DNA of 64,000 nt from Desulfocapsa sp. (GCA_013792135.1 VMSP01000124.1:16480-80479), one strand, 5' to 3'; counted from the stretch's first letter, positions 541-20,291 are shown. Notes: generated from the letters alone by a model not told the origin. Program-made: numbers and translations.

Positions 541-662
541 ACGTTTCCTCTCTCCTGTTTGTAGGGAAGTTACCTCTGTTATGCTCCTGTTAGAGGCATA
601 CATTGTCGTCTATATCTTACAAAATTAACAGATCATGCTACAATTCTTACTAACGATTAGCC

Positions 663-1097: not shown

Positions 1098-1206
1098 CGC
1101 TCCCTCACTGTTTATAGTAGGTGTTTCCTCTGGAATACCCCTATTAGAGATACGTTGTATTATCTGTGTTTTACAAGATTACCGAGCATTCATGCTGCAG
1201 TTGTCA

Positions 1207-2961: not shown

Positions 2962-4040
2962 GGCAGCGGCTTGCCCTCTTTGAGATACTGGAAGATTTGA
3001 ACCCGTTTGTTATAGGAATCAGCGACATAGATTTTGTCATTCTGGTCAATCCATAACCCGGCCGGCATCCAGAACTCACCGTAGTCCTGGCCTGATCTGC
3101 CAAAGTCCATAAGCAGTTGCCCTGTTTTGTCAAAGATCTGGATGTTGTCAAAGAGGGCATCAGCCACATAAATGTTGCCGTCACTGTCGCTGGCGATACC
3201 GCGGGGCCGGGAAAAATGACCGGGACTGTCACCGGAGCTGCCAAATGTCCTCTGGAACTGTCCTTGGGCGGAAAAAATTTGAATTCGGAAGTTAAGGGCA
3301 TCGGTAATAAGAAGGGTGCCATCGCCGGTAACAGCAATATTGGTGGGGTTATTGAATTGTCCGGTTTCCACTCCCTTGCTACCAAATGTTCCCTTCAATT
3401 GGTGGTTGTCGAGATCAAATCTGAAGACCTGAGCCAGTTTTGTATCGACCACGAGCAGTTCATTGTTTGTTTGATTGATAGCTATACCGGTTGGCCGTTG
3501 AAAGAGGCCCTCGCCAATGGTTATTGGCGAGATGTCATCGGCGCCGTTAAAGACCTTGATAATATTATCCTTGGAGTCTGTAACGTAAATTGGGCCGCTC
3601 TTATCAACAGCAATACCAATAGGAGAAGTCATGGGGAGGTCATCAGCAGGTAAAACGGAGAATTCCCCGGCTGTCGTATCAAAGAGCTGAACCCTGCGCA
3701 GATAGGTGTCCACGACATACATTCTGCCGGCTCTATCCACCGTCACTCCATAGGGTGCTACCAGGGTATCATCTTCCTTGCCGATAACAAAATTCCAGAA
3801 GCGCATCAAAGCCCCTGGGGTGATCTGGAAATCTTCCGGTTTGGAGATGCTGCTGATAAAACGGATTCTTGGTTTTTCTCCACCTGTGGGCCAAACCAGA
3901 TCGACCGGTGGCACCACTGGTTCGATATTCGGGGACATACAGCCATAAAGCCCGAGAACAACAACGAGCAACAAGGATATGCGGCTGGCCCTGTGAGGGA
4001 AATGGTTTTTGCTCATTATTTTAATCAATATCTTTATCAT
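2958..4040 (-). CDS. NHL-repeat six-bladed beta-propeller lipoprotein
   Basis: Lipobox-like LGLYGC. Six NHL-type blades, e.g. GVTVDRAGRMYVVDTYLRRVQLFD, PTNIAVTGDGTLLITDALNFRIQIFS, PRGIASDSDGNIYVADALFDNIQIFD, AGLWIDQNDKIYVADSYNKRVQIFQ. Confidence 0.9.
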   Translation of the reverse strand: MIKILIKIMSKNHFPHRASRISLLLVVVLGLYGCMSPNIEPVVPPVDLVWPTGGEKPRIRFISSISKPEDFQITPGALMRFWNFVIGKEDDTLVAPYGVTVDRAGRMYVVDTYLRRVQLFDTTAGEFSVLPADDLPMTSPIGIAVDKSGPIYVTDSKDNIIKVFNGADDISPITIGEGLFQRPTGIAINQTNNELLVVDTKLAQVFRFDLDNHQLKGTFGSKGVETGQFNNPTNIAVTGDGTLLITDALNFRIQIFSAQGQFQRTFGSSGDSPGHFSRPRGIASDSDGNIYVADALFDNIQIFDKTGQLLMDFGRSGQDYGEFWMPAGLWIDQNDKIYVADSYNKRVQIFQYLKEGKPLP

Positions 4041-4049
4041 AGGTCAAGC

Positions 4050-6128
4050 CTACCACATAAAGCGGATGATTTCAAAACGAGCCAGTTGTTCTGTTCGCTG
4101 ATTGTCGGTCAGACTGTAATTTTGGTCGGTGAATTCATAGCTGAGGCGCGCCGTCCAGATGCGGTAGCGGAACTCAAGGCCTGCCTTGATGCCGTTATTT
4201 TCGGTTGCCTCAAAATCTCCCTGGCTGTTGTCATAATAGCCCTCGACACGAAGTTTACACCATCTGCTTAACAACCAGTCAAAGGAACTGACTCCGCCGT
4301 AAAAATCCCTGGTCTCATCATGGTCTTTATAATCGGTTTGACCAAAATAACCTGTCAGAGAAAAGTAAAACTGTCCCTGAGGCCTGTAGTACAGCGTTTC
4401 CCGTATTTCTCGCCGGGTATAGGATGAGGTGGATTGGCGGTTGTTGTCCTCGTAGCTGAGCGAGGTGTTTGACCAACCGATATCATAGCGGATATTGGCA
4501 TTATGAACGGTGTCATCAACCAGGTTCTGCGGCGCCTGACCAGAGAGGATATCCTGGGTAACCCGCAGGAAATTGTAGGAAAAAAGCCAGTCATGCCAGA
4601 GGTCGAAATTGATTCCGTAGTTCTCCGTCAATAAGGCATCATCATATTCTGCATCTCGAAGGTAACGGTAGTTGACTGAAACGATTTGCCCATCTGATAT
4701 CGCACCAAAAGGCAGTCGGCTTATCCGTACATAATCGTTGATTTTTTCAACTGTGTAATCAATGTTTACAATATAAACGATGGTCCCGGCACTGTTGGTG
4801 ACAACAATGGAGTCAAGGTTGACGTTGTAATGATTCAGATAAATTTCTTCATTGAAGCCCAGACTATGGGTCTCATTGGTCACCAGGGCATCAGAAGAGG
4901 TGAATCCGCTCCGGTCAGTGTAGAGGTAGTCCCAGCCGGTATACAAGCCCAGCGTCGTCCAGGAAAGGGGACGTTTGTAGGAAAAATTAAGGAAGCCATC
5001 GTATGCGTTCTCGTTGCCGGTGGAGTAATTATTCTGATTTGCTCTGCTGCCGACATTGGTGGTCAGGTTTTCATAAAGCAGGTGCGTCAAACTGGCCTCA
5101 ATATCTGTCATGTCGGAATTAAAATCACCTGATTCCTGCCGGTTGTGGGTAACTGAGTAATTAGACTGTAAATTTGGGCGATGGCGCCAGTTCAGGTGTT
5201 CTCTGAAATTGATATTTTGCGTATCATACCAGGTTGAGTCCTGGTTCCTGTAAGTCATGGACGAGTTCAAATTGATATTGTTGTCTTCAGTGATCTTATA
5301 GTTGTTGAACAGACTACTACTAAGGGTTTTTATTTGAGTCTCAAAATCATCGCTGTTTCTCTGGTCATCACTGTAGGTGGAGGTCAGCCAGGTATTGCTT
5401 GTTTCGGTCTGATGCCGGGATGACAGATTAAATTCATCGTGGATGTCTTGGGAGATATAGAAACCGGTCTGGTCGGTCTTATTGTGGGAATATCCAAAAG
5501 TGGTGGGCAGAACTTTATATTTGAGTTGTCCAGTGGCGCCATAGGAGTCGGTAATAGTTTCGGTGTTACCTGAAAAGGCTGCCCATACAGGTTCCTGCAG
5601 ACGGTTGGCAAAGATGTTGAGTGTATAGGGCTTTGGCTCAAGAAAGGTCGCTGTCATGGAATAATCCGGTGTAAAGGCACTCGTCCGGGTTGTATCCCCT
5701 GGGCTCATTTCTTCTTTAGTCTGGGTCAATTCTGGTGCAATCATCAGCGTGTATTGCATAAGTGCAGGGTGGTAGACCCAACCTGCTGTTTTGATCTCTA
5801 TTTGCTCTTTAAATTTATGGCTGGTGTCCGTGTCTGTTATACCGTTTGATGTTTGGGATTCATTTTGAAATTCGTATATGAGTTTCCCGCCCATGGTAGG
5901 CCGTTTGATAAAATAATATTGGCTTTGCTGTCCGTCTTTCGTCTGACTCGTCTTCCATTTACCAAGGAGTGCTGCGACCGCAGATGTCTCCCGGGCAACA
6001 TCATCATCTGGCACTGATTGTTTTTCTTCAGCCTGAAGTTCTTCAGTACCGACAAAAAAAAGCGTCAATGATGCAAGGGCAAGCAGGCCTAACGGAAAAA
6101 AATTTAAGCAAGAGTCTGAAATTTTCAT
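4050..6128 (-). CDS. Large outer-membrane beta-barrel protein (candidate porin of a porin-cytochrome conduit)
   Basis: Signal peptide (FFPLGLLALASLTLFFVGTEELQA). 692 aa rich in N/S/T/Y/D with alternating hydrophobic pattern. C-terminus ...RFEIIRFMW has aromatic/hydrophobic residues at -1/-3/-5 (OMP signature). Flanked by lipoprotein cytochrome and NHL genes. No family-level match recognised by eye. Confidence 0.7.
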   Translation of the reverse strand: MKISDSCLNFFPLGLLALASLTLFFVGTEELQAEEKQSVPDDDVARETSAVAALLGKWKTSQTKDGQQSQYYFIKRPTMGGKLIYEFQNESQTSNGITDTDTSHKFKEQIEIKTAGWVYHPALMQYTLMIAPELTQTKEEMSPGDTTRTSAFTPDYSMTATFLEPKPYTLNIFANRLQEPVWAAFSGNTETITDSYGATGQLKYKVLPTTFGYSHNKTDQTGFYISQDIHDEFNLSSRHQTETSNTWLTSTYSDDQRNSDDFETQIKTLSSSLFNNYKITEDNNINLNSSMTYRNQDSTWYDTQNINFREHLNWRHRPNLQSNYSVTHNRQESGDFNSDMTDIEASLTHLLYENLTTNVGSRANQNNYSTGNENAYDGFLNFSYKRPLSWTTLGLYTGWDYLYTDRSGFTSSDALVTNETHSLGFNEEIYLNHYNVNLDSIVVTNSAGTIVYIVNIDYTVEKINDYVRISRLPFGAISDGQIVSVNYRYLRDAEYDDALLTENYGINFDLWHDWLFSYNFLRVTQDILSGQAPQNLVDDTVHNANIRYDIGWSNTSLSYEDNNRQSTSSYTRREIRETLYYRPQGQFYFSLTGYFGQTDYKDHDETRDFYGGVSSFDWLLSRWCKLRVEGYYDNSQGDFEATENNGIKAGLEFRYRIWTARLSYEFTDQNYSLTDNQRTEQLARFEIIRFMW

Positions 6129-6299
6129 AAAAAGGTGGTGAGACAGCGAGCTTTGTTAATGTTTTTAAGTCATTGGAGAAGATATCTTCCAGATAAGCCG
6201 TCGTTCAAAAGCATCTGCTCATTCAATGTTATTAACGCAAAGTGGCCGTAATGAAATGGCTTAAGAGTATGTGTTATTTTTTAAGGCCCCTAAACATCT

Positions 6300-7007
6300 T
6301 CACCTGTCAGGTACCTGGTCTCCAGGGACGAGTACCACAGGCATCTTGATTTCTTTGTACTCTTTTGTCAAAATGTTTTTGTCGATACCCATATGCGGGT
6401 TGTGACAGGAGAGACACTCTTCCCCTTTTTGATGAACGGATGTTGCCAGGAACTTCCCTTCCTTGTGACAGGGGAGGCAGATGATGGACGGCGCCTGACG
6501 CAGGGTGTTCGCGATATTACTCTGGTGCGGATCGTGGCATGACAGACAGTCTCCCTTTGCTACGGTGTTGTGCAGCCACAGATTGTCGGCCATGGCCCGT
6601 CTTGGGGTTTTATCTTTATGGCATTGGATGCAGAGCTCATTTTTTGGAAGGGTCAATTTTCCAGGCATGCCGCCGCCTGTTTTGAAAACATGAGGTGATG
6701 ATTTTTGAGCACCGGGAGTGCGGAATACACCTGTACTTTCATGACAGGGAGTGCATGTGCCTGCCACCCAAACCGGATGGGAAAACAGGGGCTTGGGGGC
6801 TGATGGAACTGGTTTTTTGGCAATATTGGCAGCAGGGGGAGGTGTCGCCGGCTCCTGGATCTCAGCAGCCGGCGCTGATTCCTCATTCAGGGGAGGAACA
6901 CCGGTAAAGAAGAAGTTGAGTGCCTGGTGCCTGGTTTGCGGCTCGCATCCGGTCAGGGAGGCTGTCAATAAGATTAGCATAACTATCTGAGCTGAACCCC
7001 TGACCAT
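6300..7007 (-). CDS. Pentahaem cytochrome c lipoprotein
   Basis: Lipobox LTASLTGC followed by a Pro/Ala-rich linker. Motifs: CTPCH, CIQCH, CLSCH, CLPCH, CLSCH. Confidence 0.9.
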   Translation of the reverse strand: MVRGSAQIVMLILLTASLTGCEPQTRHQALNFFFTGVPPLNEESAPAAEIQEPATPPPAANIAKKPVPSAPKPLFSHPVWVAGTCTPCHESTGVFRTPGAQKSSPHVFKTGGGMPGKLTLPKNELCIQCHKDKTPRRAMADNLWLHNTVAKGDCLSCHDPHQSNIANTLRQAPSIICLPCHKEGKFLATSVHQKGEECLSCHNPHMGIDKNILTKEYKEIKMPVVLVPGDQVPDR

Positions 7008-7054
7008 TTTATTGTCCTTTTTGCCAATTCATAATACAATCTTTCGCTGAAGGA

Positions 7055-8137
7055 CTATTTACCTGTCCAGTCACCAAAACCGTAGACATTGATTTTATTG
7101 GGCCCACTCAGATTGCAGACATAGATGAGATATTTCAGCTTGAAATACTTGTCGGCAAACTTATTGAAAAACTCAATGTTGTCATAATCGATATGGACCC
7201 CTGCCGGCAGGTACATATTGCCGGGACCGACTCCAGGGCCACCGAAAAATAAAAGCATCCTGGCTTTTTCGTCAAAAATCTGCGCATATTCAGAGGCAGC
7301 ATCGACACTATACAGATGTCCTTCCCGGTCAATATCCAGCCCCTTGGGCCGGGCCATACCACCGACATGGTCGCCGTGAAAGCCAAAAACTCTGACGAAC
7401 TTTCCCTCGGGATCGAATTGCTGGACCCTGAAATTAAAGGCGTCATTGACAAAGAGATTGCCTTGGTCGTCAACGGTGATATGGGTTGGTTTGTAGAGTT
7501 GTCCCTCTGCAGAGCCACCTTTACCAATATAGAGAAGTGGTTCTCCGGAATCTTTGTCGAGAACAACAATCTGATTTTTTTTTATGTCGCAGACAAAAAT
7601 GCGGTTTTCGTGCACGGCAACATCGACAGGTTTCTCAAACAATTCTTTGTTGCCATAGGCTCGGACAAAGTTATTTTTGGCATCAAAGACCACGATCTGT
7701 TGTCGATTCATGTCGGCCACATACTTGACATTGTCCCGGCTGACCCAGATGCCGGCAGGGGTACGGAGAGTGCCGAGGCCTTTGTCGTCCAGCTTTTTGA
7801 AACTCTTTGCGGCCAAGTCAAAAATGAGGATCTTGTTAATCTCTCTGTCGGTAATATAGATGTTCCCTGGTGATGAGCTCACATCATAGGGTCGTCCTAT
7901 GGTGGCGAAAGATACATTAGGTCCCAGGAGAAAGTTTTCCAGACCAGTTTGCTTGCTTCCCGTATCCTCTTCCGAGGAGAGGGTGGTGAGAAACTGCAGT
8001 CTGGGTTGTTCCGGCGGTTGAGGGTAGAAGACAGCTGGCGCTTTTTCTTCAACGTGTTGGGCGCAAGCACTGATAATGAAAAGACAGAGCAGAGTGTATA
8101 TCAGCTGCTTGATGATAAAGAGTTGAGTTTTCGGCAT
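7055..8137 (-). CDS. NHL-repeat six-bladed beta-propeller lipoprotein (paralogue 2)
   Basis: Lipobox-like LFIISAC. NHL blades, e.g. PTHITVDDQGNLFVNDAFNFRVQQFD, PKGLDIDREGHLYSVDAASEYAQIFD. Confidence 0.9.
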   Translation of the reverse strand: MPKTQLFIIKQLIYTLLCLFIISACAQHVEEKAPAVFYPQPPEQPRLQFLTTLSSEEDTGSKQTGLENFLLGPNVSFATIGRPYDVSSSPGNIYITDREINKILIFDLAAKSFKKLDDKGLGTLRTPAGIWVSRDNVKYVADMNRQQIVVFDAKNNFVRAYGNKELFEKPVDVAVHENRIFVCDIKKNQIVVLDKDSGEPLLYIGKGGSAEGQLYKPTHITVDDQGNLFVNDAFNFRVQQFDPEGKFVRVFGFHGDHVGGMARPKGLDIDREGHLYSVDAASEYAQIFDEKARMLLFFGGPGVGPGNMYLPAGVHIDYDNIEFFNKFADKYFKLKYLIYVCNLSGPNKINVYGFGDWTGK

Positions 8138-8300
8138 GGTAGTTTTTGATGGTTCCGCTAAAAAAATATGCTAAAAATATTTTACCTGCAAAGCGGCTAC
8201 AGTTTCAAAATTGAGCCCCGGCGAGGGGATGCCACTGTAACTGGACAGTTCCACCAATAAAGCAGTAAAATATTTTTGGTCGCATGTCATTAGTTTTTTT

Positions 8301-8348
8301 AAAAAAAGCCGCCCCATACATTGAAAATGTCTTAGGGTATGGGGCGGC
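8301..8348 (-). terminator. Rho-independent terminator downstream of the 8382..9026 cytochrome gene
   Basis: Perfect 12-bp GC-rich stem (gccgccccatac 8308-8319 / gtatggggcggc 8337-8348). On the minus strand it is followed by T7 (plus-strand A7 at 8301-8307). Confidence 0.75.
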
Positions 8349-8381
8349 GACAGCAGGCAGAGGGCGAATCAGGCCATGCTC

Positions 8382-9026
8382 TTATTTGGTGTGACAGTTA
8401 ATACAAAGGGCCGATCCGAAATTGGTGCCATTGAGCAGTCCCGCTCCCAGAGCAGTATTATGTTTGTTATGGACATCATGGCAGGTCGCGCACTCCATCA
8501 TGCCGGCAAACAATGGCAGTTTCTGTACTCCCACAGTTCCGTCAGCGGAGGGGGTCACAAGGCCGACGACTCCGCTACCGGTAAGGGTATCTCTAACGAC
8601 AAGCTCGTTATTATAGAGGAACGAAACAGGATGGTCGTTGCCCAAGTTGTTCGTGCCGTCTCCGAGATTGGCGGCCCCGCTGATATAAGTAGTGCCTGGA
8701 TGGTCGGTATAGGCGTCAAGCGCTACAGTACCGTCGTGACAGGAAAGACAGAACTTGGATAAAGAAGCGGGTTGACCCGGAATTGCAATATCAAAAGTTG
8801 GACTGTCGTACAGAGTATAGGACGCTGTAGTCGGATTATGATTCCACAGGAGGTCGCCTGTGAGGTTTTGATTGTTATGCGGGGCGTGACACGGCATGCA
8901 GATCTGACCATTAGCCCATGATGTTAGGTGGAAATCATGGGCTGACCCAGTGATGACTGCAGGAGCTGTCGAGCAGATACCTAGACCACCAATAAGTGTT
9001 AATGATGCAACCAGTAGTTTTTTCAT
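8382..9026 (-). CDS. Tetrahaem cytochrome c (paralogue of the N-terminal part of the 1207..2961 product)
   Basis: The likely start is the internal ATG giving the signal peptide MKKLLVASLTLIGGLGICSTAPA; the ORF extends to 9086. Motifs: CMPCH, CLSCH, CATCH, CINCH. It shares FCLSCHDGTVALDA / NDHPVSFLY with the 584-aa cytochrome (LCLSCHDGTIALGA / DDHPVSFSY). Confidence 0.85.
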   Translation of the reverse strand: MKKLLVASLTLIGGLGICSTAPAVITGSAHDFHLTSWANGQICMPCHAPHNNQNLTGDLLWNHNPTTASYTLYDSPTFDIAIPGQPASLSKFCLSCHDGTVALDAYTDHPGTTYISGAANLGDGTNNLGNDHPVSFLYNNELVVRDTLTGSGVVGLVTPSADGTVGVQKLPLFAGMMECATCHDVHNKHNTALGAGLLNGTNFGSALCINCHTK

Positions 9027-9736
9027 TTCTCTTCCCCTTTCCCTGAATATTTTAAAATACTTCCATTGGCTGGACGTAAGGATCACCTCCGCAGTTCTTC
9101 AGCAAAGTCGAACAGAGGAGATAAAAATTTATTTTTTAATGCGTCCCTGAATATCCATTCTCCATGTACCTTTGTCACGCAACCCAGCCATGCGCCTTGC
9201 CAGCAACTAACCCTCTAAAATCACAACGACAACACAACAGTTTTCGCAGGCAAATGAAAAAAATCACAGACAAAACCTTAAACGGACCTTACTCTCTCCC
9301 TGCATTTCTTTTATTTAATAGTACTGTAGCCCTCATGAACAAAAAAGAGGGTTTTCCCTATTTCTGAGATGCTAAAAACCTCTGTTTTTTTTGTCAGGAT
9401 GCAGAATCCGTCCTGACTGTGTACAGAGACGTTTGTGAGGCGGTTAAGAAAATCGTTAGTCACGTCTCGTCTAATTATAGTGCTGGATTTCGAATCTTCT
9501 CTACATATCCAGAAACCATTATAATCTATATTACTGCTGTCTCATAAAAGATCAATCATAAATGGCCTAGATGAACCTGTTTGACCGTCGCCCGTTCAAC
9601 GAACGATTTAAATCTCCATGCAATCAACATGTGTTTTCTCCAAAGAAATTGATCTGGAAAAATTTATAAGTCAGCAGTGATCCCATTACCAGACTTGATA
9701 GCTTCACCTGACAGCCAAAGTGACATAGCGCTGGAC

Positions 9737-9999: not shown

Positions 10000-12237
10000 T
10001 CAAGGTGCCGGCATGGGTTTTCTTTTTTTGCTGTCATGGTAATATTTAAATCGAAACAGCGAATCAAGGCCGTGACAATCCTTGCATATCATATTGTAGG
10101 TCTGTATCCGTAAAAAGCTGTTGGTGGCCTTGCCTTCGAGATTATTGCCGGTGCCCTGTGATGCCTGTTTCGGATCCCATTGATGGACATCATGGCATGA
10201 GGAGCAGGCAATATCGCCAACAGTTTTGAAGGCCCCTGTGGCATTGTCAAACAGGGGAAAGTAGTTTGCCTGGTCCTTGCTGTTTCTTCCTGGATTGGCA
10301 ATCAGTTGTTTTTCCGGGTGAGTGGATACTTTGGGCACCTTATTGCGACCCGATCCTGTCTCACTATGGCAGCTGTTACACATCCTGTCCATGATACCTT
10401 TACCGATGCCGTAGTCACGAGCCCAGAGGCGCACCTTGTTTTTCCCATTATGGATGATATGGCAGGCGCCGCAGACTCCGGATTCTGCTGGTGTCTGGCC
10501 CTGCATGTTTTTGGCTTTCGGAGCGGTTATGGTGAGATCGTGGTCTGTCTTTTCTACATATGCCTTTGCCCCATGGCAATTACCACACAAGACGGGTCTT
10601 GGTGCGACCTCAAGACGGAGAAAGCTGTTTTTGGCGTTGCCTTCTGGATTGTTACCGCCATGATCTTCTGGTTTTTGAGGATTCCATTGATGGGGATTGT
10701 GACAGGTAAGACAGGCGATCACACCGTTACCAGCCTTTTTTCCCTGCTTGTCATAGAGGGGAAGCTTGGTATTGATACCCTTTTTGGCAGGATCAATATC
10801 AACGGGATGGGAATGACCCCCGATCACCTTTTTATCGGCCTCCCCTTTGCTCTTATGACAGGTGAGGCAGAGGTCCTGGGCCGGAAAGGTACTCTTGCCA
10901 GGAACATTTCTGGCCCACAAATTCTCTGTCTGCGCTCCGTGCACCAGATGGCAAACGCCGCACACGTCAGACTCCAGAGCCGACTGGCCCCGATCATTTT
11001 TCGTTGTGGGTCCCGTATTCCGCAGATCATGATCACTCCCGACAATGCGGGCCTGTTGAACATGGCATTGCCTGCACAGCCTCTCCGGCTGACCACCTTC
11101 TACCCGGAGAAAACTGGAACTTGGAGGCGTCATCTTCGCCTGTCTGTCTGTTCCTTTCTGGTGCGGGTCATGGCAGGTGAGGCAGGTTAAGAGTGCCTCC
11201 TTTGACTTGAAGGGGATCTGTTTTCCCTTGAGATCATAAACTGGCAAATCAGGCGTCATCCCCTTGTCTTTGAGTGAGATATTGACGGGATGAGCATACC
11301 CCTTGAGGAGTTTTTCAGGGGCCAGTCCCTGCCTGTTATGGCAACTTATACAGAGGTCCTGGATCCTGTTTTCGCTCTTGTCTGGAAGCTCTCTTGCCCA
11401 GAGTGCCACTTTCTTTGCCCCGTGTACCAAATGACAGGCACCGCATATTCCTGACTTTTCCGGGTTCTGTCCCTTGCTGTTTTTTGAATTTGCTGCTGAG
11501 CGTCGCAGGTCATGCCCGGTGTTCAGGACGCCGCCCTTCTCCTCATGACAGTCGAGGCAGAGCTGGGCCGAATCGCGGTTGTTGTCCACGAGGAAATTGT
11601 CATACGGTGAACCATGGACCGTATGACAGGTCTGGCAGATGAGTTGCTTCTTGTCAGAGCCCTCGACACTGCCTCGGCTGAGCATCTTCTCGGGGATTGG
11701 ACGTTTGATTGTGCCAATGGGATGGTTACCGGCAGCAGGGCCGCCTTCCTTGCCCTTGTGACACATCATGCACATGGAAGAGTTATCGTTTGAGGCACGG
11801 ATAAAGACCGCCCTCTCTATCCCCATCTCGCTGGATACGCCGTGGGCGGTATGGCAGGTAAAACACTGCATGTTTCCCTTATCGTCCAGGGGGAAGATGG
11901 CCGGGATTTCCATGCCTGGGGGCGGAGGTTTGTTGATGGGATGACGATGATCGTTGTAGACCTTTCCTCTTGAGTCAGCCACACTGCCGTCATGGCAGGA
12001 AAAGCACATTTCCTGTGAGGCGACAGCCTTTGTTGTCTCCTCATAGGGAACCAGGTCTGTTCCCTTGCCATCGATGAAAAAGGTATCGATCCATCGATAG
12101 TGACAGATCGCACACTCTTTGGCTGAGTTCGGGTTGCGGGGAGGGGGCTGATCGGCGAGAGAGGACGTATGGTGCAAGAATATGGTGCTGAAAAGGAGGA
12201 AAAGGAGGAAAAGGAGGTAGGTTGAGGATCTGTTCAT
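10000..12237 (-). CDS. 18-haem c-type cytochrome with three tandem four-haem modules
   Basis: The likely start ATG at 12237 gives the signal peptide MNRSSTYLLFLLFLLFSTIFLHHTSSLA and avoids overlap with the upstream gene; the ORF extends to 12348. 18 CXXCH motifs counted. Three homologous ~165-aa modules each have the pattern C(G)xCHxxHG...LWAR...C.xCH...HP...C..CH(D/N)xHQ...SFLR...C..CH. Confidence 0.9.
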   Translation of the reverse strand: MNRSSTYLLFLLFLLFSTIFLHHTSSLADQPPPRNPNSAKECAICHYRWIDTFFIDGKGTDLVPYEETTKAVASQEMCFSCHDGSVADSRGKVYNDHRHPINKPPPPGMEIPAIFPLDDKGNMQCFTCHTAHGVSSEMGIERAVFIRASNDNSSMCMMCHKGKEGGPAAGNHPIGTIKRPIPEKMLSRGSVEGSDKKQLICQTCHTVHGSPYDNFLVDNNRDSAQLCLDCHEEKGGVLNTGHDLRRSAANSKNSKGQNPEKSGICGACHLVHGAKKVALWARELPDKSENRIQDLCISCHNRQGLAPEKLLKGYAHPVNISLKDKGMTPDLPVYDLKGKQIPFKSKEALLTCLTCHDPHQKGTDRQAKMTPPSSSFLRVEGGQPERLCRQCHVQQARIVGSDHDLRNTGPTTKNDRGQSALESDVCGVCHLVHGAQTENLWARNVPGKSTFPAQDLCLTCHKSKGEADKKVIGGHSHPVDIDPAKKGINTKLPLYDKQGKKAGNGVIACLTCHNPHQWNPQKPEDHGGNNPEGNAKNSFLRLEVAPRPVLCGNCHGAKAYVEKTDHDLTITAPKAKNMQGQTPAESGVCGACHIIHNGKNKVRLWARDYGIGKGIMDRMCNSCHSETGSGRNKVPKVSTHPEKQLIANPGRNSKDQANYFPLFDNATGAFKTVGDIACSSCHDVHQWDPKQASQGTGNNLEGKATNSFLRIQTYNMICKDCHGLDSLFRFKYYHDSKKRKPMPAP

Positions 12238-12265
12238 AGCAAACTGTTTGTTTGGTGATGCACTA

Positions 12266-13249
12266 TTATTGTGCATTGTCCAGGCTGAAGACGCTGAGTC
12301 GACCTGGAAGCATTTCCACAACATAGAGGCGCATTGAGTCGTCAACAAAGAGTCCCACCGGGGTAGTAAATTTTCTCACCCCACCGCTTACAGGATCACC
12401 GAGGACAGAATGAAATGTTCCTGTGATATTAAAGAGCTGAATCACTCCCATGTAGCTGTCGCTGACATAGGCGAGGCCTTTTTTATCAACAGTGACCCCT
12501 TTGGGCCTGAAGAATTGTCCCTTTTCCACACCCCAGCCTCCGACAAAGGTAACAAACTTGCCCTCTGTGTTCACCACCTGTACCCTGGTGTTGATCACAT
12601 CGACGATGTAGAGATCTTTGTTATGATGCAGATGCATGAGAAAGGGATAACGGAACTCCCACTTCTCAGCCCCTGGTTTTCCATAGCTGTTGACAAGCTT
12701 TTTTGAGCCAATATCAAATTTGAGAATACGGTGATTATTGTTGTCTGCCACAAAGAACCACTTGCCGGAATCATTTACGGCCACATCCGTTGGATCTGCC
12801 TTGTTACCGTTATCGTCCGGAACCGGGATCTCAGATATAAAATCTCCCTTGGCTGTGAATATCTGGATCCTGTGGTTTCTGGAATCGGCAACATAGATCC
12901 TGCCTGATTCGTCAATATCCATACCCAGGGGAAAGGCAAATTCGCCGGGTCCGGTTCCTGGGCGTCCGATGGTGAAAAGATAACTTCCTGATGGAGAAAA
13001 TGCCTGTATCCTGCCATTGACTCCGTCAACCACATAGATGGTACCATTCTTGGCAACGGCCACATCGCTTGGCTGGTTAAATGTACCCTTTATATCAAAG
13101 AGGTGTTTTGCCATGGTCAGTTCGAGTCCATAGGCAGCCGAGCCATAGGCAGTGAGCCAGAGGAGGATGGCAACGGAAAATATGCTGCTCCGTTGCCATC
13201 TGCACTTCACGAGGATTGTACGCCATCCAAGCATAATATCTTTATTCAC
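12266..13249 (-). CDS. NHL-repeat six-bladed beta-propeller protein (paralogue 3)
   Basis: Signal/anchor SIFSVAILLWLTAYGSAAYG. Blades, e.g. PSDVAVAKNGTIYVVDGVNGRIQAFS, PLGMDIDESGRIYVADSRNHRIQIFT, PKGVTVDKKGLAYVSDSYMGVIQLFN. Confidence 0.9.
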   Translation of the reverse strand: MNKDIMLGWRTILVKCRWQRSSIFSVAILLWLTAYGSAAYGLELTMAKHLFDIKGTFNQPSDVAVAKNGTIYVVDGVNGRIQAFSPSGSYLFTIGRPGTGPGEFAFPLGMDIDESGRIYVADSRNHRIQIFTAKGDFISEIPVPDDNGNKADPTDVAVNDSGKWFFVADNNNHRILKFDIGSKKLVNSYGKPGAEKWEFRYPFLMHLHHNKDLYIVDVINTRVQVVNTEGKFVTFVGGWGVEKGQFFRPKGVTVDKKGLAYVSDSYMGVIQLFNITGTFHSVLGDPVSGGVRKFTTPVGLFVDDSMRLYVVEMLPGRLSVFSLDNAQ

Positions 13250-13262
13250 TTGTTCCAGGTGG

Positions 13263-14210
13263 TTAGTGCTGTTTTGGCGGAAGTTCCGGCTGCTGTTTCG
13301 GCTGTAGTTCCGACTGCTGTTTCAGCAGTGGTTCAGGCTGCAGTTGCGGCAAGGCCGGTTTTTCACCAGGACTCAACATTTTCGGCATATGAAATTCTGT
13401 ATAGTTTCTTATCATTCCCACCACCTCTGTACTGGTGATAGAGTCAATCCGTGTCTGGGGATACCCAAGCTCAGCCAGGGGGAGGAGCGGTTTATTCTTT
13501 GTATGGCATGCTTCACAGGTCACCGGGGTCTTACTGATAATCTTATGGATAAGCTTCTTTGCCTTGGACTTCTGGCCTTCGCTCAAGACCTTTTCATTGT
13601 TCTTGTAATCAAGAGCAAATTGTATCTTTTCTTCACTGTCGATACGGACGAGTTTACCGTTCTCATCACGAACAAAGGGGATGATTTTTGCCTGATAGGT
13701 TCCTGGCGCAGCCCCATTAACCGGGCTGTCAACAATATCGCCGGTTTTGCGGTCATACCATTTATAGACGTTTGTCTTATCCTTTTCTTCGAGTTTGACA
13801 TGGCAGGTCTGACAGGCGACAAAGAAGGCGTGCATATTCAAAAAAGCACGAACATCCTTTACTTTATCGTGCGGCATGTCACCGTGGCAGGATCGGCAAT
13901 AGGACCTGTTATCCGGGCCTATATCAAAACCGATATGGTGAAAATGGCCCTCTATTCGTTGCTCTTCGAGCACACGGTAGCCGAGATAGTGCTTAACCCG
14001 ATCTTCGCTTTCAAGGATCATCGTATCAAATGTCTGTTTTCCTTTCTCCTTTTTGCCTGCTTCTCCCTCATGCTGAATGGAGACATCTCCCTTCCGGGCG
14101 TGGTATTCATGGATAAGATGGGCAAAGGTCAAGTTCCAGATGAGCACACCGAAAAAAACAACCAGCCCCATAAAAGCAAGGATGTATAACTTGGTAAAAA
14201 AACATTTCAT
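13263..14210 (-). CDS. Membrane-anchored trihaem cytochrome c with Pro/Gln-rich C-terminal tail
   Basis: N-terminal TM helix LYILAFMGLVVFFGVLIWNLTF. Motifs: CRSCH, CQTCH, CEACH. Tail PQLQPEPLLKQQSELQPKQQPELPPKQH. ATGA overlap with the upstream cytochrome b gene. Confidence 0.8.
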   Translation of the reverse strand: MKCFFTKLYILAFMGLVVFFGVLIWNLTFAHLIHEYHARKGDVSIQHEGEAGKKEKGKQTFDTMILESEDRVKHYLGYRVLEEQRIEGHFHHIGFDIGPDNRSYCRSCHGDMPHDKVKDVRAFLNMHAFFVACQTCHVKLEEKDKTNVYKWYDRKTGDIVDSPVNGAAPGTYQAKIIPFVRDENGKLVRIDSEEKIQFALDYKNNEKVLSEGQKSKAKKLIHKIISKTPVTCEACHTKNKPLLPLAELGYPQTRIDSITSTEVVGMIRNYTEFHMPKMLSPGEKPALPQLQPEPLLKQQSELQPKQQPELPPKQH

Positions 14211-15109
14211 GAGCTGATCCCTCCCTGCTGCATGGTATCATTCGGCTGTTCGGCATCGGTAGTGGTTGATGGACTGTTTTCGTCCGATAACGGTTTACCA
14301 CAGAAGGGCTTGTGGCCACCATGAGGTGGGAGGATTTCATCCTCCAGTCCCTCTTGTTTCATTACCCTGACATAATGTTCATAGTGCTCTTCAGCCATCA
14401 AATCCTCTGGGAGATAACCCGTCAAAAAAACCGTGCCCATTGGGAAGACGGATGTGGAAAAATGGACATTGTACCAGTGCCATATAAAGAGAAAAAGGGC
14501 GGCCAGCAGTGCCTCGTCGCTGTGGGCTATCAGGCAGAGGTTGATGAGCTCCCCTGGTATGACCTGGGTGGCAAGCACTTTGTTCCAGATAACGAGGCCG
14601 GTAAGACCAATGACAAACATACCCCAGAACGGTGCCCAGTAATCAAATTTTTCCTTCCAGGTAAATTCATCTCCATCAGGCCGTACAGTGGTAAAATAGA
14701 GGAGATACTTCATCAGCCCTATGATATCATAGGCGTCCTTCATGTTGGGGATCATCGGCTGCTTAACCAGTATCATGGAGACTCGACCAACACTCATCTT
14801 TCCCTCTTTTTTGAGGGGTAAAATCTGTTTAGTCACGATTTGGCTGATAACACGGATGACATGGTACACAAAGAGGATGAGCATAATGGCACCGGTTATT
14901 TTATGTATTGTCGGCGCCATCTTACTTCCACCGAAAATAGTATAAAGATACGGGGCCCAGCTTGCATCGCTGAATTTGAGAGGCATCCCTGTCAGTACCA
15001 GGATAATGACCGTTAGCGCCAGGATGATGTGCTGGATCCTTTGGTCCAGGTCGAATCTGAAAAAATATTTCTTTCCGTCTTTTCTTTTTATAGCTGGATA
15101 TCGTTTCAT
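14207..15109 (-). CDS. Integral-membrane b-type cytochrome (FdnI/HydC/PhsC-like dihaem cytochrome b)
   Basis: N-terminus KKYFFRFDLDQRIQHIILALTVIILVLTGMPLKF is typical of the Ni/Fe-hydrogenase / formate dehydrogenase cytochrome b family. At least 4 TM helices carry conserved His (IHKITGAIMLILFVYHVI, IAHSDEALLAALFLFIWHWYNVH). Translationally coupled to both flanking cytochrome c genes. Confidence 0.8.
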   Translation of the reverse strand: MKRYPAIKRKDGKKYFFRFDLDQRIQHIILALTVIILVLTGMPLKFSDASWAPYLYTIFGGSKMAPTIHKITGAIMLILFVYHVIRVISQIVTKQILPLKKEGKMSVGRVSMILVKQPMIPNMKDAYDIIGLMKYLLYFTTVRPDGDEFTWKEKFDYWAPFWGMFVIGLTGLVIWNKVLATQVIPGELINLCLIAHSDEALLAALFLFIWHWYNVHFSTSVFPMGTVFLTGYLPEDLMAEEHYEHYVRVMKQEGLEDEILPPHGGHKPFCGKPLSDENSPSTTTDAEQPNDTMQQGGISS

Positions 15110-16170
15110 TATTTCTCTTTCCTCCGACTAAAAGATGCATTGGGAAACAGGCGGCGAAGCAGGTCAAGAAACAGGATCGCCATCAGAGGCAACAGGGTAC
15201 CGCCGGTGAGAACGATGAAGAAGGTGGTAAACCAGTATATTACCGGGTTGCTTTTCTTATCGAATTCGGCATGGACCTTGTAATTCGCAAAGTCTGCGGA
15301 GGCTCCTGGATGACAGTCCACGGAGTTGCAAATTTTCCCTCTGTTGTCTTTATGGGTTGTGGCGCGAGGGTCCTTGTTCTCATACATCTGGTGTACGGAT
15401 TTTCCCTTGGGCACATGACAGTCAAGGCAATCTGGCACCGATTCGTCGAGAAGGTTGGCTGCCTTGCCGTGAAAGGTCTGACCATAGGAACCTCCAGCAC
15501 TGGTGGAAAGATTGTGCCTGGCGACCAGCTCCGGGTCATCATGGCATCGAGCGCACGACTCTGCAATATTTAGGGGGCTTCTGCTCTTGTGCAGCCTGGT
15601 GGTGATATGATTGTAAAACCTGGTGATAAATTCTTCTTGTGTGTGACAGACTCGGCAGCGCCCCAGAGCATCCTCGGCGACACCGGGTCTGACTTTTTTA
15701 ACAAAGGCAAGGGGTCTGAACAATGGGTCATCATGACAGTCCTTGCAGGTGGGCATATCCTCGCTGAACGGTTTTTCCTTGCCGTCCTTGCCCTTCTTGC
15801 TGTGAACACTGTCTTCCAGGGAGGTTGCAACACTCTTATGGGAGAACTTCTGCTCTGAAGTCGGTTCTATGATATGGCAAAGCACGAGGCAATCGACAGG
15901 CTTGGCTGGTTCATGGGGAATTTTGGTTATATCAGTATGACATCCCTCGCACTTGACCTTGCCATGGACGCCCTTGTTGTGAATTTCCTCATTGACAAAG
16001 AGAAGCCGCATCTCGCCATTCTCGTCAACCCTGCTTAATCCCGGGTACTTGTGACAGACAAGACAGTTGCCTGCATCTGCCCCAAAGACCCTTGCTGGCA
16101 TGAAATAGATGGTAAGCAGTACAAAAATACCAATGTAACCAAATGGTCCGAAACGTGACTTCAATCTCAT
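15109..16170 (-). CDS. Multihaem cytochrome c with C-terminal membrane anchor (6 CXXCH + CX3CH + CX4CH)
   Basis: Signal peptide. Motifs: CLVCH, CEGCH, CLVLCH, CKDCH, CRVCH, CARCH, CLDCH, CNSVDCH. C-terminal TM VIYWFTTFFIVLTGGTLLPLMAILFLDLL. Pairing with the downstream cytochrome b resembles the CbcA/CbcB-type quinol oxidoreductases described in Geobacter (architecture only). Confidence 0.85.
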   Translation of the reverse strand: MRLKSRFGPFGYIGIFVLLTIYFMPARVFGADAGNCLVCHKYPGLSRVDENGEMRLLFVNEEIHNKGVHGKVKCEGCHTDITKIPHEPAKPVDCLVLCHIIEPTSEQKFSHKSVATSLEDSVHSKKGKDGKEKPFSEDMPTCKDCHDDPLFRPLAFVKKVRPGVAEDALGRCRVCHTQEEFITRFYNHITTRLHKSRSPLNIAESCARCHDDPELVARHNLSTSAGGSYGQTFHGKAANLLDESVPDCLDCHVPKGKSVHQMYENKDPRATTHKDNRGKICNSVDCHPGASADFANYKVHAEFDKKSNPVIYWFTTFFIVLTGGTLLPLMAILFLDLLRRLFPNASFSRRKEK

Positions 16171-16271
16171 CTCCTCTCCTTTTTTTGTAACACTTTCGTA
16201 AGATCTACTCCGTTATGTAAACAACTGTACTGGTATAGGTTTCGCAGTGGTGCGAAGTTATTGTTCAATTT

Positions 16272-17201
16272 TTACATGTTATGGCATGCCACACAGATAC
16301 TGCCCCCTCCCCATGCTTTTCTCAGCCGACCCTTGTCGCTTGCACCGGCAGATGCTGCTTTTTCAGTGGGGATAACCCCGAGTTCATGGGGGTTGTGGCA
16401 GGTAATACAGGTGATTTTCCCCTCATCGTTCAGTGGCAGTATGATCGAGAGATTTTTCTCGGACCAGTGCATTCTGGTGGACACCTTTTCGGATGGTTTG
16501 ACGCGATGGTTTGTGCTGAGGGGGTGGTTTCCGGCTTTGTTATTGTGACATCGCAGGCAAAGCACTTCAAGATCACCGACAAGATGGACAGTATCTTCTC
16601 CGTTTTCTCGCGATTCCAGTGTCGCAGACTCCACGTCAGGCTTGGTTTCGTGGCAATAGAGGCATGACTCTGAGTTTATCGCCCCTGAGGCGTCCAGCTG
16701 TTTGTGCGGGTCAAGCATCTTGTACTGCTTTTCCTGATGGCATTGAAAACAGAGGAAGGTTCTGCCCAAGGAGGGGTCCGTTCGTAAAAATGCCTTATTG
16801 TGGCGTTTGAATTCAAATTTCGGCTCGCATTGCAACGCCATGTTGTGGCAGGTGGTACAGGTGATTTTGTTGTTTGTAAGGGGGAATTCTGCCGGGATAG
16901 TGGCCAATTTTTCGGCTGAGAGTGGTATGTCGACAGGATGGGTATAAGTGTCGGAAGTATATCCATGACACCTGCAGGCCAGTGTATAGTTTTCATATCT
17001 CAGCTGAACGGCATCACCTTTGTTTGGTCTTTGCAGATGACACTCAGTGCAGTAGTGTTCGTTGAAATGGACATTGGTTTCTGTTGTCACGCCGGGGTTA
17101 ATGAAAAGAAGATCCTGTTGGCTGTCGTTATTTGCCAATGTTATGCTGCTGACAGAGAGGAGAAACAAGGAGATATATGTTGTTTTTTTTATTGTCCTCA
17201 A
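16272..17201 (-). CDS. Periplasmic multihaem cytochrome c (7 CXXCH + 1 CXCH)
   Basis: Signal peptide MRTIKKTTYISLFLLSVSSITLA. Motifs: CTECH, CTTCH, CFQCH, CLYCH, CLRCH, CITCH, CVACH, plus ACRCH. First gene of the operon. Confidence 0.85.
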   Translation of the reverse strand: MRTIKKTTYISLFLLSVSSITLANNDSQQDLLFINPGVTTETNVHFNEHYCTECHLQRPNKGDAVQLRYENYTLACRCHGYTSDTYTHPVDIPLSAEKLATIPAEFPLTNNKITCTTCHNMALQCEPKFEFKRHNKAFLRTDPSLGRTFLCFQCHQEKQYKMLDPHKQLDASGAINSESCLYCHETKPDVESATLESRENGEDTVHLVGDLEVLCLRCHNNKAGNHPLSTNHRVKPSEKVSTRMHWSEKNLSIILPLNDEGKITCITCHNPHELGVIPTEKAASAGASDKGRLRKAWGGGSICVACHNM

Positions 17202-17655: not shown

Positions 17656-18297
17656 TTACAGCTCTGTCAGCCCTTCTCGGATGGCATATTTGACAAGTCC
17701 GGCCACGGAGTTAATCTGCAGTTTTTCCATGAGCCGCCCTCGCCGTCCTTCAATGGCCTTGACGCTGACAAAGAGTCTTTCGGCAATTTCTTTGGTCGAA
17801 CGGCCCTCGGCAATCAGTTGCAGCACTTCACGTTCTTTGGTTGTGAGGTTTTCTTCCTTGGCCTCGGAGAGCAGGCGACGTCGGTAATCGTGAACAACCA
17901 TACCGGCAATTTTGGGACTGAGATAGGTCTGCCCGCTACGGACTGCGTCAAGGGCCTGGTTGAGTTCCTGGAAGGCGCACTCCTTGAGCAGGAAGCCTGA
18001 TGCTCCGGCCTGAAGAGCACCGGTAATGAAGCGTTTATCCGAATGCATGGACAGGACAATGATCTTACAAGAGGGGATTTCTTCCATGATCGAACTGGTG
18101 GCATCAATACCGTTCATCTCCGGCATGCTGACATCCATGATGATGATATCAGGTTTTTCCCGACGTGCCACCTCGATGGCTTGCCTACCGTTTTCCGCCC
18201 GGCCGACGATGGTGTAACCGGAGAGTCCTTCGATGAGTGAACAGAGCCCGTCCCTGACAATTTTATGGTCATCAACCACAATAATTTTTAGTATCAT
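17656..18297 (-). CDS. NarL/LuxR-family response regulator (REC + HTH)
   Basis: Receiver domain (KIIVVDDH..., PDIIIMDVSMPEMNG). C-terminal LuxR-type HTH (LTTKEREVLQLIAEGRSTKEIAERLFVSVKAIEGRRGRLMEKL). 4-nt overlap with the kinase gene. Confidence 0.93.
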   Translation of the reverse strand: MILKIIVVDDHKIVRDGLCSLIEGLSGYTIVGRAENGRQAIEVARREKPDIIIMDVSMPEMNGIDATSSIMEEIPSCKIIVLSMHSDKRFITGALQAGASGFLLKECAFQELNQALDAVRSGQTYLSPKIAGMVVHDYRRRLLSEAKEENLTTKEREVLQLIAEGRSTKEIAERLFVSVKAIEGRRGRLMEKLQINSVAGLVKYAIREGLTEL

Positions 18298-20291
18298 ACT
18301 CGTTCACTGCCGGATTCCGTGCAGGCCTCTTTTATTGGAATTGTAATGATTATGGTTGTTCCTTGACCTTTTGGCGAATTAATCACCACTGTGCCGCCGA
18401 TGTTGACTACCCGCTCACGGACGCTGAACAGGCCAAAGCCTCCGCTTGTGTTTTCTCCGTCTTTTTGATTCCCGTCTTTCATGCCGCAGCCATTGTCCCT
18501 TACGGTTATACGGACACCTTTGCTTGTACATCGAACTTCTACCTCGGCAGTATCAGCATGGGCATGACGGACGACATTTATCAGTAATTCACGAATTGTA
18601 CGGTAAATAAGGGCCAGGAAGGCGGGAGTGGTGCATTTGGGACACGCATCACATGCGGACTTGATTGTGAGGGCGTATTTTTTTTGAAAATCTTCAGCGA
18701 GCCATTCCAGCGCGGCCTTAAGACCAAGCTCATACAAAATGGGCGGACTGAGTTCAAAGGTGAGGGTGCGGACATCCTGTACTGTTTGCTCAATGATGCT
18801 TGCTATGAGCTGAAGTCTCTCCTGGCTGACATCGTTTGATGTGGAGGAAATGAGTCCATCCACATACATCTTCACAACCGAGAGGGACTGCCCTACCTGG
18901 TCGTGGAGGTCAGTGGCAAGTTGGCGTCTTTCATTGTCTTCTATCTGCATGAGTTCCGATGAGAGGGCGCGAAGACGCTTCCTGTGGTTGATCAGTTCTT
19001 CTTCCTTCCCTTTGCGGGTTACAATTTCGATCTGCATTACCCTGTTAGCCTGACGGAGCTCTCTGGTACGTTTTTCGACCTGTTCTTCAAGGTTTCTCTG
19101 GACCTCGTGCAAGTCTTTTTCAATCTTCAGCCTCTCCTTGATCTCTTTGATCATCTGGTCATTCAGTTGACGACGTGAAGTTGTATGTTCATTAATGATA
19201 TTTTTTTGATGTTCGCTGGTTTGTGCAAAATCGGCGATCATGGAGCGGAGGTCATCACTTAATCTGGAAAATTCATCGGTGTTGAAGCCTATCGATAGTG
19301 GATTTTCTGGTTGTACTTTTATTCGAGACGGGAAGGCTTTATCGATAAGGTCTCGGAATGTCGAGGTTGCAGTCCTGAGCTGATTTCTGTAAACGATGAG
19401 GAGGAGAAGGAGGGTAATAAGGCCTATGCCAATGTTTGAGAATAGGACATAACGAAGGGTCTTACTGGATTGGTTGGTGATAGGGCGATCGGCCTGAACC
19501 TCAAGAAGCCACTTGGGTTTCTCCAGATAATCGGAAAGGAGGCTGTATACGGTGATTCTGTTTTCTGTATCATAAAAGACAAAGGGTGTCTCTGGGCCAA
19601 GTGTGGATATATCGGCAGGAATCTTGGAAAGAGGCTCTTGTTCATCGAGATCAAGAAGTCGGTAATTGACCTTGGTCTGTTTTTTTAATTTTGCCATTAA
19701 CTCCTTGGTGAGCAAGCGACCCAGCATCAGCGTTCCGACAATGGGCCCGGTGTTTTCACTGGTGATAATAGGGTGGGATGCGATCAAGAGTGGGCCGTGA
19801 GCTGTTTTGAGAATTCCACTGATTGAACTGTCCACTCCTGGATGGTGCAGCAGGGAATGATTTCTGGCCAGTCCGGTCGGCGGCAGCTCAGAGAGGCCCA
19901 TTTCCTCTTCTGTCTCAAGGTTGAGCAGTCGACTCAATACCAGCGATCCGTCGAGGCGAAATATGTACAACAGATTTAATTTGATATTTGTAAAGGTTGT
20001 ATTTCCTAGATTGGAGGTGATATATTCGGGGTTTACGTTCTGTACAAAATTATAGGTATCATCCCAGGCCGACCAGTCATGGGCGATGGTTACCAAACCC
20101 TCTTCTTCTCGTAGTAGCGCTTCAATAAGACGTTCCATCTCTTGTTGAGCCAGGTGATGTTCAAGTTGAAGATGGTGGGGGGAGACAATCAGCTTAATAA
20201 TGAAATAGTTGGCAAGTGAGTATATGGAAACTAAGAGCAAGAGGCTGAGGAACGCCTTGCCCTGTATTAATCTGATTTTCCCTAACATCAT
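18294..20291 (-). CDS. Sensor histidine kinase, HisKA_3 (NarX/DegS-like) class, with large periplasmic sensor domain
   Basis: Two TM segments bracket a ~260-aa periplasmic region (WDDTYNFV motif; a CHASE4-like guess only). Coiled coil. H-box LATDLHDQVGQSLS. ATPase motifs VRDNGCGM and GGFGLFSVRERV. Confidence 0.9.
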   Translation of the reverse strand: MMLGKIRLIQGKAFLSLLLLVSIYSLANYFIIKLIVSPHHLQLEHHLAQQEMERLIEALLREEEGLVTIAHDWSAWDDTYNFVQNVNPEYITSNLGNTTFTNIKLNLLYIFRLDGSLVLSRLLNLETEEEMGLSELPPTGLARNHSLLHHPGVDSSISGILKTAHGPLLIASHPIITSENTGPIVGTLMLGRLLTKELMAKLKKQTKVNYRLLDLDEQEPLSKIPADISTLGPETPFVFYDTENRITVYSLLSDYLEKPKWLLEVQADRPITNQSSKTLRYVLFSNIGIGLITLLLLLIVYRNQLRTATSTFRDLIDKAFPSRIKVQPENPLSIGFNTDEFSRLSDDLRSMIADFAQTSEHQKNIINEHTTSRRQLNDQMIKEIKERLKIEKDLHEVQRNLEEQVEKRTRELRQANRVMQIEIVTRKGKEEELINHRKRLRALSSELMQIEDNERRQLATDLHDQVGQSLSVVKMYVDGLISSTSNDVSQERLQLIASIIEQTVQDVRTLTFELSPPILYELGLKAALEWLAEDFQKKYALTIKSACDACPKCTTPAFLALIYRTIRELLINVVRHAHADTAEVEVRCTSKGVRITVRDNGCGMKDGNQKDGENTSGGFGLFSVRERVVNIGGTVVINSPKGQGTTIIITIPIKEACTESGSERV

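Follow-up and report, generated by a model that had tools for sequence, protein, structure and literature searches.

The nearest characterised relative of the proteins described here is CbcL (Cbc1, GSU0274) of Geobacter sulfurreducens, a menaquinol oxidase for which nine c-haems have been published together with a di-haem b domain and six membrane helices. CbcL has been singled out as unique because it couples its b-type membrane part straight to a multihaem cytochrome; a quinone site on the cytoplasmic side has been argued for it, and a long b-to-c gap has been noted in its models. In a second Geobacter system, CbcBA (Cbc5, GSU0593-0594), the cytochrome b subunit CbcB is described as having three of the b-haem histidines, the fourth coming from a helix of CbcA (Joshi et al.). 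Desulfurivibrio alkaliphilus, for which sulfide, FeS or formate can serve as electron donor in ferrihydrite respiration, has a cytoplasmic-membrane protein with eight CXnCH motifs, DA_2140 (WP_013164302.1), and a three-haem protein, DA_2141 (WP_013164303.1), that was labelled 'CbcL-like' in 2025, its subunit architecture not being dissected (Nature 2025; PMC12545173 and Table S3 therein). Here we analysed a stretch of 64,000 nucleotides from Desulfocapsa sp. (GCA_013792135.1 VMSP01000124.1:16480-80479; the window), in which six co-directional genes, A to F, occupy the minus strand at 10000-17201. A sequence-only reading had taken genes A to D (13263-17201) for an inner-membrane, quinol-oxidoreductase-like module of b- and c-type cytochromes, had likened it to CbcBA, and had counted the trihaem cytochrome D as an extra. 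Our comparisons lead to a different relative: B, C and D are probably the subunits of one inner-membrane complex, a split and extended menaquinol:cytochrome c oxidoreductase of the CbcL (Cbc1) type.

Cytochromes B and C as relatives of CbcL

The cytochrome b subunit, C, has four transmembrane helices and matched PF01292 with 35.9 bits (cut-off 30.1). Its H27, H69, H196 and H211 aligned with H18, H57, H155 and H169 of Escherichia coli FdnI (1kqf_C), which we take, with the numbering of the Fdh-N structure, to be the four haem ligands; the ligand pairs of C are H27/H211 and H69/H196. In alignments of 75-77 homologues, which also underlie the conservation figures for B and D, these four histidines were invariant, as were H83, H216 and H242. 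An AlphaFold2 model of C (predicted local distance difference test score 82, predicted template-modelling score 0.75) gave a single significant Foldseek match in the PDB, again 1kqf_C (E 1.6e-6, TM 0.76). Beyond this fold, C has a long conserved cytoplasmic loop (P121, D125, Y135, K152, K154) and a C-terminal extension.

For comparison with authentic Geobacter proteins, a genome was located by a PpcA search, and an exact cluster look-up with its CbcB assigned it to G. benzoatilyticus. At 90% identity this CbcB falls into one cluster with ABB33147.1 of G. metallireducens, whose annotation reads 'Menaquinol oxidoreductase complex Cbc5, cytochrome b subunit'. Its locus encodes a 7-haem CbcA with a C-terminal helix, the 230-aa CbcB, a 12-haem CbcC, a 1-haem two-helix CbcD and a divergent regulator, a layout that agrees with the literature. 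CbcL of this genome (L124:6129-8030) has 633 aa, nine CXXCH motifs and six transmembrane helices. Four fusion proteins from metagenome-assembled genomes were considered as Geobacter CbcL and rejected; they proved to be from other Deltaproteobacteria. By BLASTP, C was 34% identical to G. benzoatilyticus CbcL over 240 aa (E 2.5e-42) and had no similarity to CbcB (E 2.1).

The multihaem subunit B led to the same protein. B has a signal peptide, a histidine-free C-terminal transmembrane helix at 317-335 followed by a basic tail, and eight haem motifs: six CXXCH, one CX3CH (CLVLCH, C94..H99) and one CX4CH (CNSVDCH, C281..H287). All 16 cysteines, those of both widened motifs included, were 99-100% conserved in 77 homologues, and 9-10 further histidines were conserved as well, enough for eight bis-His haems. 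Against G. benzoatilyticus CbcL, BLASTP gave 24% identity over 360 aa (E 7.6e-19), with B residues 15-353 paired with CbcL residues 23-339, that is, with the haem domain and first helix. The eight sites of B were colinear with eight of the nine CbcL haem motifs, and the anchor helices aligned; CbcL motifs 3 and 9 correspond to the CX3CH and CX4CH of B, and CbcL motif 4 has no counterpart in B.

A maximum-likelihood tree was computed from 75 PF01292 domains. In it, C grouped with its deep paralogues and every cytochrome-fused form, the CbcL b-domains among them, in a single clade on a long stem (support 100/99). E. coli FdnI and HyaC, Geobacter CbcB and three further PF01292 proteins of the Desulfocapsa genome (L081-L083) lay outside it. 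Within it, the subclade of the window protein together with the C-D fusions described below was sister to the CbcL group (97/81). Three stand-alone cytochrome b genes also belong to this clade (L113, from G204:C47, L098 and L087); the 305-aa product of L113 groups with CbcL and has an extra C-terminal helix and no haem domain, and so represents C plus the sixth CbcL helix with B unfused.

This placement bears on two other readings of C. Homologues are publicly annotated as 'formate dehydrogenase subunit gamma', and NCBIfam gave matches, including to TIGR01583, that were all sub-threshold. That C belongs as gamma subunit to a formate dehydrogenase or hydrogenase with its catalytic partners at another locus is nevertheless barely credible: the TIGR01583 score of 55 bits is far under the cut-off of 116, a long, fully supported branch parts C from FdnI, HyaC and the three PF01292 proteins of its own genome, and multihaem cytochromes in every case flank C or are joined to it in one chain. 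In the window, no gene for a formate dehydrogenase or [NiFe] hydrogenase adjoins C. Judged by its sequence and modelled fold, C is an FdnI-fold di-haem cytochrome b and not a formate dehydrogenase or hydrogenase subunit.

The second reading, a CbcBA (Cbc5)-type complex with an added subunit, draws on a common gross architecture, in which a multihaem cytochrome c with a C-terminal helix precedes a PF01292 cytochrome b. We regard it as very improbable, given the missing BLASTP match between C and CbcB, the position of CbcB outside the C/CbcL clade, and a match of B to CbcA that is only partial (21% identity, E 2.5e-4). The histidine schemes differ too, since all four are in C and none in the helix of B, and a LuxR/CHASE4 gene pair stands nearby instead of a sigma-54 regulator of the BccR type. 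Thus the general view of the sequence-only reading, an inner-membrane b/c module, agrees with our data, as does its description of an approximately 8-haem cytochrome with a C-terminal helix. Of the two outcomes that it had named as refuting, missing haem-ligand histidines and clustering with formate dehydrogenase or hydrogenase gamma subunits, neither was observed; its named analogue gives way to CbcL. PDB sequence searches with B, C and D returned only weak matches to FdnI, hydroxylamine oxidoreductase and octahaem tetrathionate reductase (OTR), and no solved homologous complex.

The B-C-D trio and the trihaem subunit

A C-based scan of species-representative genomes yielded 146 confirmed relatives; in the best 80 loci, open reading frames were called throughout and compared with the window proteins. 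The 80 loci are from Desulfobulbaceae/Desulfocapsaceae (up to 92% identity, so that the organism of the window is assigned to this group), from Nitrospirota/Thermodesulfovibrionia, Desulfobacterales, Verrucomicrobiota, Deferribacteres and Nitrospinaceae, and from other groups. Among these best 80 of the 146, B, C and D were adjacent and in the same order in nearly every sufficiently long locus, usually followed by E and an F-like cytochrome (740-850 aa), and the unit was often duplicated, as B-C-D-B-C-D-E-F or as two full B-C-D-E-F sets. Two deeper paralogue clades of C are also arranged B-C-D. A trio kept in nearly all of about 80 loci from several phyla is an arrangement far beyond chance.

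When 400 Desulfobacterota genomes were searched with C, many matches of 34-48% identity lay within much longer frames. Some joined the cytochrome b to a helix and a trihaem domain (551-583 aa; C-D fusions), and these arose repeatedly in the tree; D. alkaliphilus WP_013164303.1 is one of them. Others ran from nine CXXCH motifs through a helix and the cytochrome b to a final helix (625-690 aa; B-C fusions of the CbcL type), in exact agreement with CbcL as published. In four proteins (P0241, P0268, P0351 and P0362; 878-1016 aa) all three parts, B, C and D, lay in one chain that had six helices and 11 CXnCH motifs.

Several variants were noted besides. The Desulfocapsa genome has a second cluster (G000:C80; L128 6977-14622) in the order B'-C'D'-E'-F'-A', 32-42% identical to the window genes, with C' and D' fused in 525 aa, a 22-haem F' and an 11-haem A'; one genome thus has both the split and the C-D-fused form. 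A third, weaker D-like match in this genome (G000:C57:10463-11041; 30% identity, E 1.7e-16) lies in a frame of 363 aa that a single TAG interrupts, and could be a pseudogene or two genes. P0252 (767 aa) is a C-D fusion with about 230 additional C-terminal residues that do not match B, C or D. The metagenomic P0290 (650 aa) is a B-D fusion with 8 + 3 haem motifs and 2-3 helices and without a cytochrome b domain; its b subunit may be encoded separately, or else it is a b-less variant.

The third subunit, D, has an N-terminal transmembrane helix (10-28), three CXXCH motifs and a low-complexity, Pro/Gln-rich tail, as the sequence-only reading had described. The three motifs and H89, H91, H92, H114, H127 and H222 were conserved. 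Residues 82-181 resembled positions 188-280 of the Shewanella OTR (1sp3; E 8.7e-6). In the AlphaFold2 model, confidence was good in the helix and at residues ~100-275, and low at 44-92 and in the tail; Foldseek found no PDB match for it at E <= 0.001, in a search for which apo models of multihaem proteins are poorly suited. BLASTP of D against the Cbc5 proteins and CbcL gave nothing, two Geobacter genomes gave nothing significant, and two other Desulfuromonadia genomes gave short haem-motif matches only. The D family was of modest size, with 374 representatives at E <= 1e-3 among 1.84 billion.

A trace of D was seen in CbcL itself. When C+D pairs, C-D fusions and CbcL-type proteins were aligned from the b-domain on, the sixth and last CbcL helix fell in register with the D anchor; the two helices have a common hydrophobic '..LIW..' pattern, and CbcL stops directly after its helix. 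By this alignment the six helices of CbcL correspond to the anchor of B, the four helices of C and the anchor of D.

These observations also bear on the possibility that D is an independent membrane-anchored periplasmic cytochrome, merely co-transcribed and outside a B-C complex. CbcL works without a trihaem domain, D had no homologue in the two Geobacter genomes, and the assembly of D with B and C is something that we infer. Against an independent D stand its 4-nt start/stop overlap with C, its place beside C in nearly all loci, the repeated C-D fusions and existing B-C-D fusions, and the equivalent helix retained in CbcL, and we consider this alternative quite improbable. By the conservation, fusion and alignment patterns of its sequence, D is a core subunit of the proposed complex, and the view of it as an extra does not hold.

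Gene cluster and surroundings

The four open reading frames of the module seen in the sequence-only reading were confirmed on the minus strand at their coordinates (Table 1).

Table 1. Genes A to F and the adjoining regulatory pair in the window
Feature	Coordinates	Strand	Remarks
A: soluble periplasmic multihaem cytochrome c, 309 aa	16272..17201	-	First gene of the string
B: eight-haem cytochrome c with Sec signal and C-terminal transmembrane helix, 353 aa	15109..16170	-	Homologous to CbcL haem domain and first transmembrane helix
C: four-helix di-haem cytochrome b, FdnI fold, 300 aa	14207..15109	-	PF01292
D: N-terminally anchored trihaem cytochrome c, 315 aa	13263..14210	-	Core third subunit, judged from sequence
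E: secreted NHL-repeat beta-propeller	12266..13249	-	Pfam NHL 2.3e-30; context gene
F: 18-haem cytochrome c	10000..12348	-	Open reading frame as listed; context gene
LuxR-type response regulator	17656-18297	-	Pfam; immediately upstream of the cluster
CHASE4 histidine kinase	18294-20291	-	Pfam; upstream, beside the response regulator

The string is a probable operon. A and B are 101 nt apart; B and C meet in TAATG, with one nucleotide common to stop and start; the end of C, ATGA, includes the start of D; and E starts 13 nt beyond D. The two gene overlaps that the earlier reading had pointed out are therefore real. A scan for promoters and terminators gave counts near the shuffled expectation and did not inform the operon limits. 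The LuxR-type response regulator and CHASE4 kinase are syntenic in the closest relatives (loci L001-L011 and L014).

Gene A had been described as a soluble cytochrome of about eight haems leading the operon. It is the first gene, and its product has a Sec signal peptide and otherwise no transmembrane helix; only seven of its motifs are canonical CXXCH, and to these is added a CRCH at residues 76-79 (window 16966-16977). This CXCH was strictly kept in 34 homologues from several phyla, and the D. alkaliphilus homologue DA_2139 ('MHC 8x', 33% identity) has a canonical CTVCH exactly at its position. CXCH is not known as an accepted motif by which c-haem is attached in nature. The CRCH of A may be a contracted haem-binding motif, and a count of about eight haems is defensible. 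The presence of A varied across the 80 loci.

As listed, with a TTG start at 12348, the frame of F shares 83 nt with the end of E (window 12266-12348). Because of this overlap the true start is probably downstream of the TTG; about 37 codons further on lies an in-frame Met followed by a typical signal sequence (MNRSSTYLLFLLF...), which is the likelier start.

Further downstream (window 1-9086, minus strand) follow a 4-haem cytochrome (8382-9086), an NHL lipoprotein (7055-8137), a 5-haem lipoprotein (6300-7007), a secreted protein of 692 aa (4050-6128) that had no Pfam match, ends in ...FMW and is a candidate outer-membrane barrel, a second NHL lipoprotein (2958-4040), and cytochromes with 11, 3 and at least 5 haems. 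Together, these genes look like the outer part of a trans-envelope conduit.

Electron flow, ancestry and comparison with known systems

In the complex that we propose, C would carry two b-haems, and the C-terminal helix of B and N-terminal helix of D would pack beside the four helices of C, giving the same six membrane helices as in CbcL. The helix of B would run from periplasm to cytoplasm, the termini of C would be cytoplasmic as in the FdnI fold, and the helix of D would lead back to the periplasm, where the haem domains of B (eight haems) and D (three haems) would both lie. By analogy with FdnI and CbcL, menaquinol would be oxidised at a site in C near the cytoplasmic-side haem; the loop of C, H83 and H216 are compatible with such a site and do not prove it. 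Electrons would cross the membrane through the two b-haems to the c-haems of B, D or both, and pass on to A, F and the downstream NHL-propeller, porin and cytochrome proteins, and so to extracellular acceptors such as Fe(III) oxides. D could act as a second exit or as a bridge from the outer b-haem to the haem chain of B. With the quinone site on the cytoplasmic side, electron export would add nothing to the proton-motive force and might even consume it.

The direction of flow can be approached through D. alkaliphilus. DA_2140 is the counterpart of B (40% identity), and DA_2141 matches C (49%) and D (31%) in one 582-aa polypeptide. Gene order is colinear (A-B-C/D-E-F), and the neighbour corresponding to E is 36% identical to it; porin and OmaC-like genes stand upstream there and downstream in the window. 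Transcripts of DA_2140 and DA_2141 were consistently higher with ferrihydrite, by a log2 fold change of ~3.0-3.4 (about 8-fold) relative to nitrate and ~1.5-1.8 relative to sulfur disproportionation (PMC12545173 Table S3). Because of this induction, the colinear neighbours and the downstream conduit genes, the most likely role of the window complex, by analogy, is to oxidise menaquinol and feed a trans-envelope chain of multihaem, NHL and porin proteins leading to extracellular acceptors.

The same complex could instead work mainly inward, as FdnI does, and reduce menaquinone with electrons taken up from donors outside the cell or in the periplasm (minerals, partner cells, electrodes). The FdnI fold, which C matches, serves as a quinone reductase in Fdh-N, haem chains are reversible, and sulfate reducers and Thermodesulfovibrionia, among which the family is common, could draw on external electrons. 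The D. alkaliphilus counterparts, however, were induced with ferrihydrite as acceptor and with three different donors, and the nearest characterised relative oxidises menaquinol; mainly inward flow is therefore unlikely.

Several points weigh against a split, menaquinol-oxidising CbcL-type complex. The transcript data come from homologues that have C and D in one chain and are only 40-49% identical, and the position of the quinone site is argued by analogy. CbcL has a histidine in its first helix where B has none, and C has the invariant H83 where CbcL has none; both residues would lie in the cytoplasmic leaflet, and the membrane chemistry may differ. D matched no structure in the PDB, and any role given to it is a guess. 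Finally, deletion of NHL-associated cytochrome clusters in D. ferrophilus gave no Fe(III) oxide phenotype (PMC9769857), which advises caution in equating such genes with iron reduction. Those clusters (DFE_0448-0451/0461-0465) were considered as a counterpart of the window genes and rejected: only the NHL and multihaem part, resembling E and F, is common to both, and no cytochrome b is described there.

The three-subunit form might further be the ancestral architecture of the whole CbcL family, a scenario that we advance tentatively and place just short of probable. Geobacter CbcL would then derive from it by fusion of B to C and loss of the trihaem domain of D, with helix 6 kept from D, and in the full complex D would be the second periplasmic exit or the b-to-c bridge. 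A D-containing ancestor is the more parsimonious one given the B-C-D organisation of the deep paralogue clades and the sister position to CbcL in the tree; with long branches and a distant outgroup, we infer it with reserve. Complexes of the CbcL kind were known already, down to the D. alkaliphilus fusion; the literature that we searched did not contain the three-subunit architecture, its spread over several phyla, the range of Rosetta-stone fusions, or the equivalence of CbcL helix 6 with the D anchor. If our reading is right, the CbcL machine exists as a three-subunit complex, with an additional trihaem subunit, in sulfate reducers, sulfur disproportionators, Thermodesulfovibrionia, Verrucomicrobiota and others. 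Outside Desulfuromonadia, the trio would be a better marker for finding quinone-linked extracellular electron transfer in genomes, it offers an explanation for the sixth CbcL helix, and it corrects public annotations as 'formate dehydrogenase subunit gamma' or 'hypothetical protein'. Naturally separate B, C and D should also be easier to express and study.

Of the described systems, E. coli FdnI and the window module have in common the four-helix fold, the four haem-ligand histidines and a partner that adds a C-terminal helix (FdnH there, B here); C, unlike FdnI, has no molybdoenzyme or iron-sulfur partner, is phylogenetically distant, and carries the conserved loop and C-terminal extension.

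CbcBA resembles the module in gene architecture and as a presumed menaquinol oxidase, in its case for low-potential acceptors. It differs in a cytochrome b without detectable similarity to C, in the seven haems of CbcA, and in the adjacent sigma-54 regulator BccR, where the window has the LuxR-type regulator and CHASE4 kinase. Its CbcC (12 haem), CbcD (HAMP, 1-2 haem) and CbcE have no counterparts in the window, and D has none in CbcBA.

CbcL, compared here through its G. benzoatilyticus orthologue, is closest. Its b-domain is homologous to C and falls in the same clade, its multihaem domain is homologous to and colinear with B, the membrane helices total six in both, and neither has iron-sulfur, flavin or molybdenum partners; both are associated with extracellular electron-transfer genes. 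CbcL is needed to respire extracellular acceptors of low potential and shows oxidative shut-off, for which the one parallel here is the ferrihydrite induction of the D. alkaliphilus genes. The differences are that CbcL is one polypeptide with nine CXXCH sites, whereas the window has three overlapping genes with 1+4+1 helices and a B of eight sites, two of them widened; that the window module adjoins a LuxR/CHASE4 two-component pair; and that the sixth helix, bare in CbcL, carries in D a full trihaem periplasmic domain.

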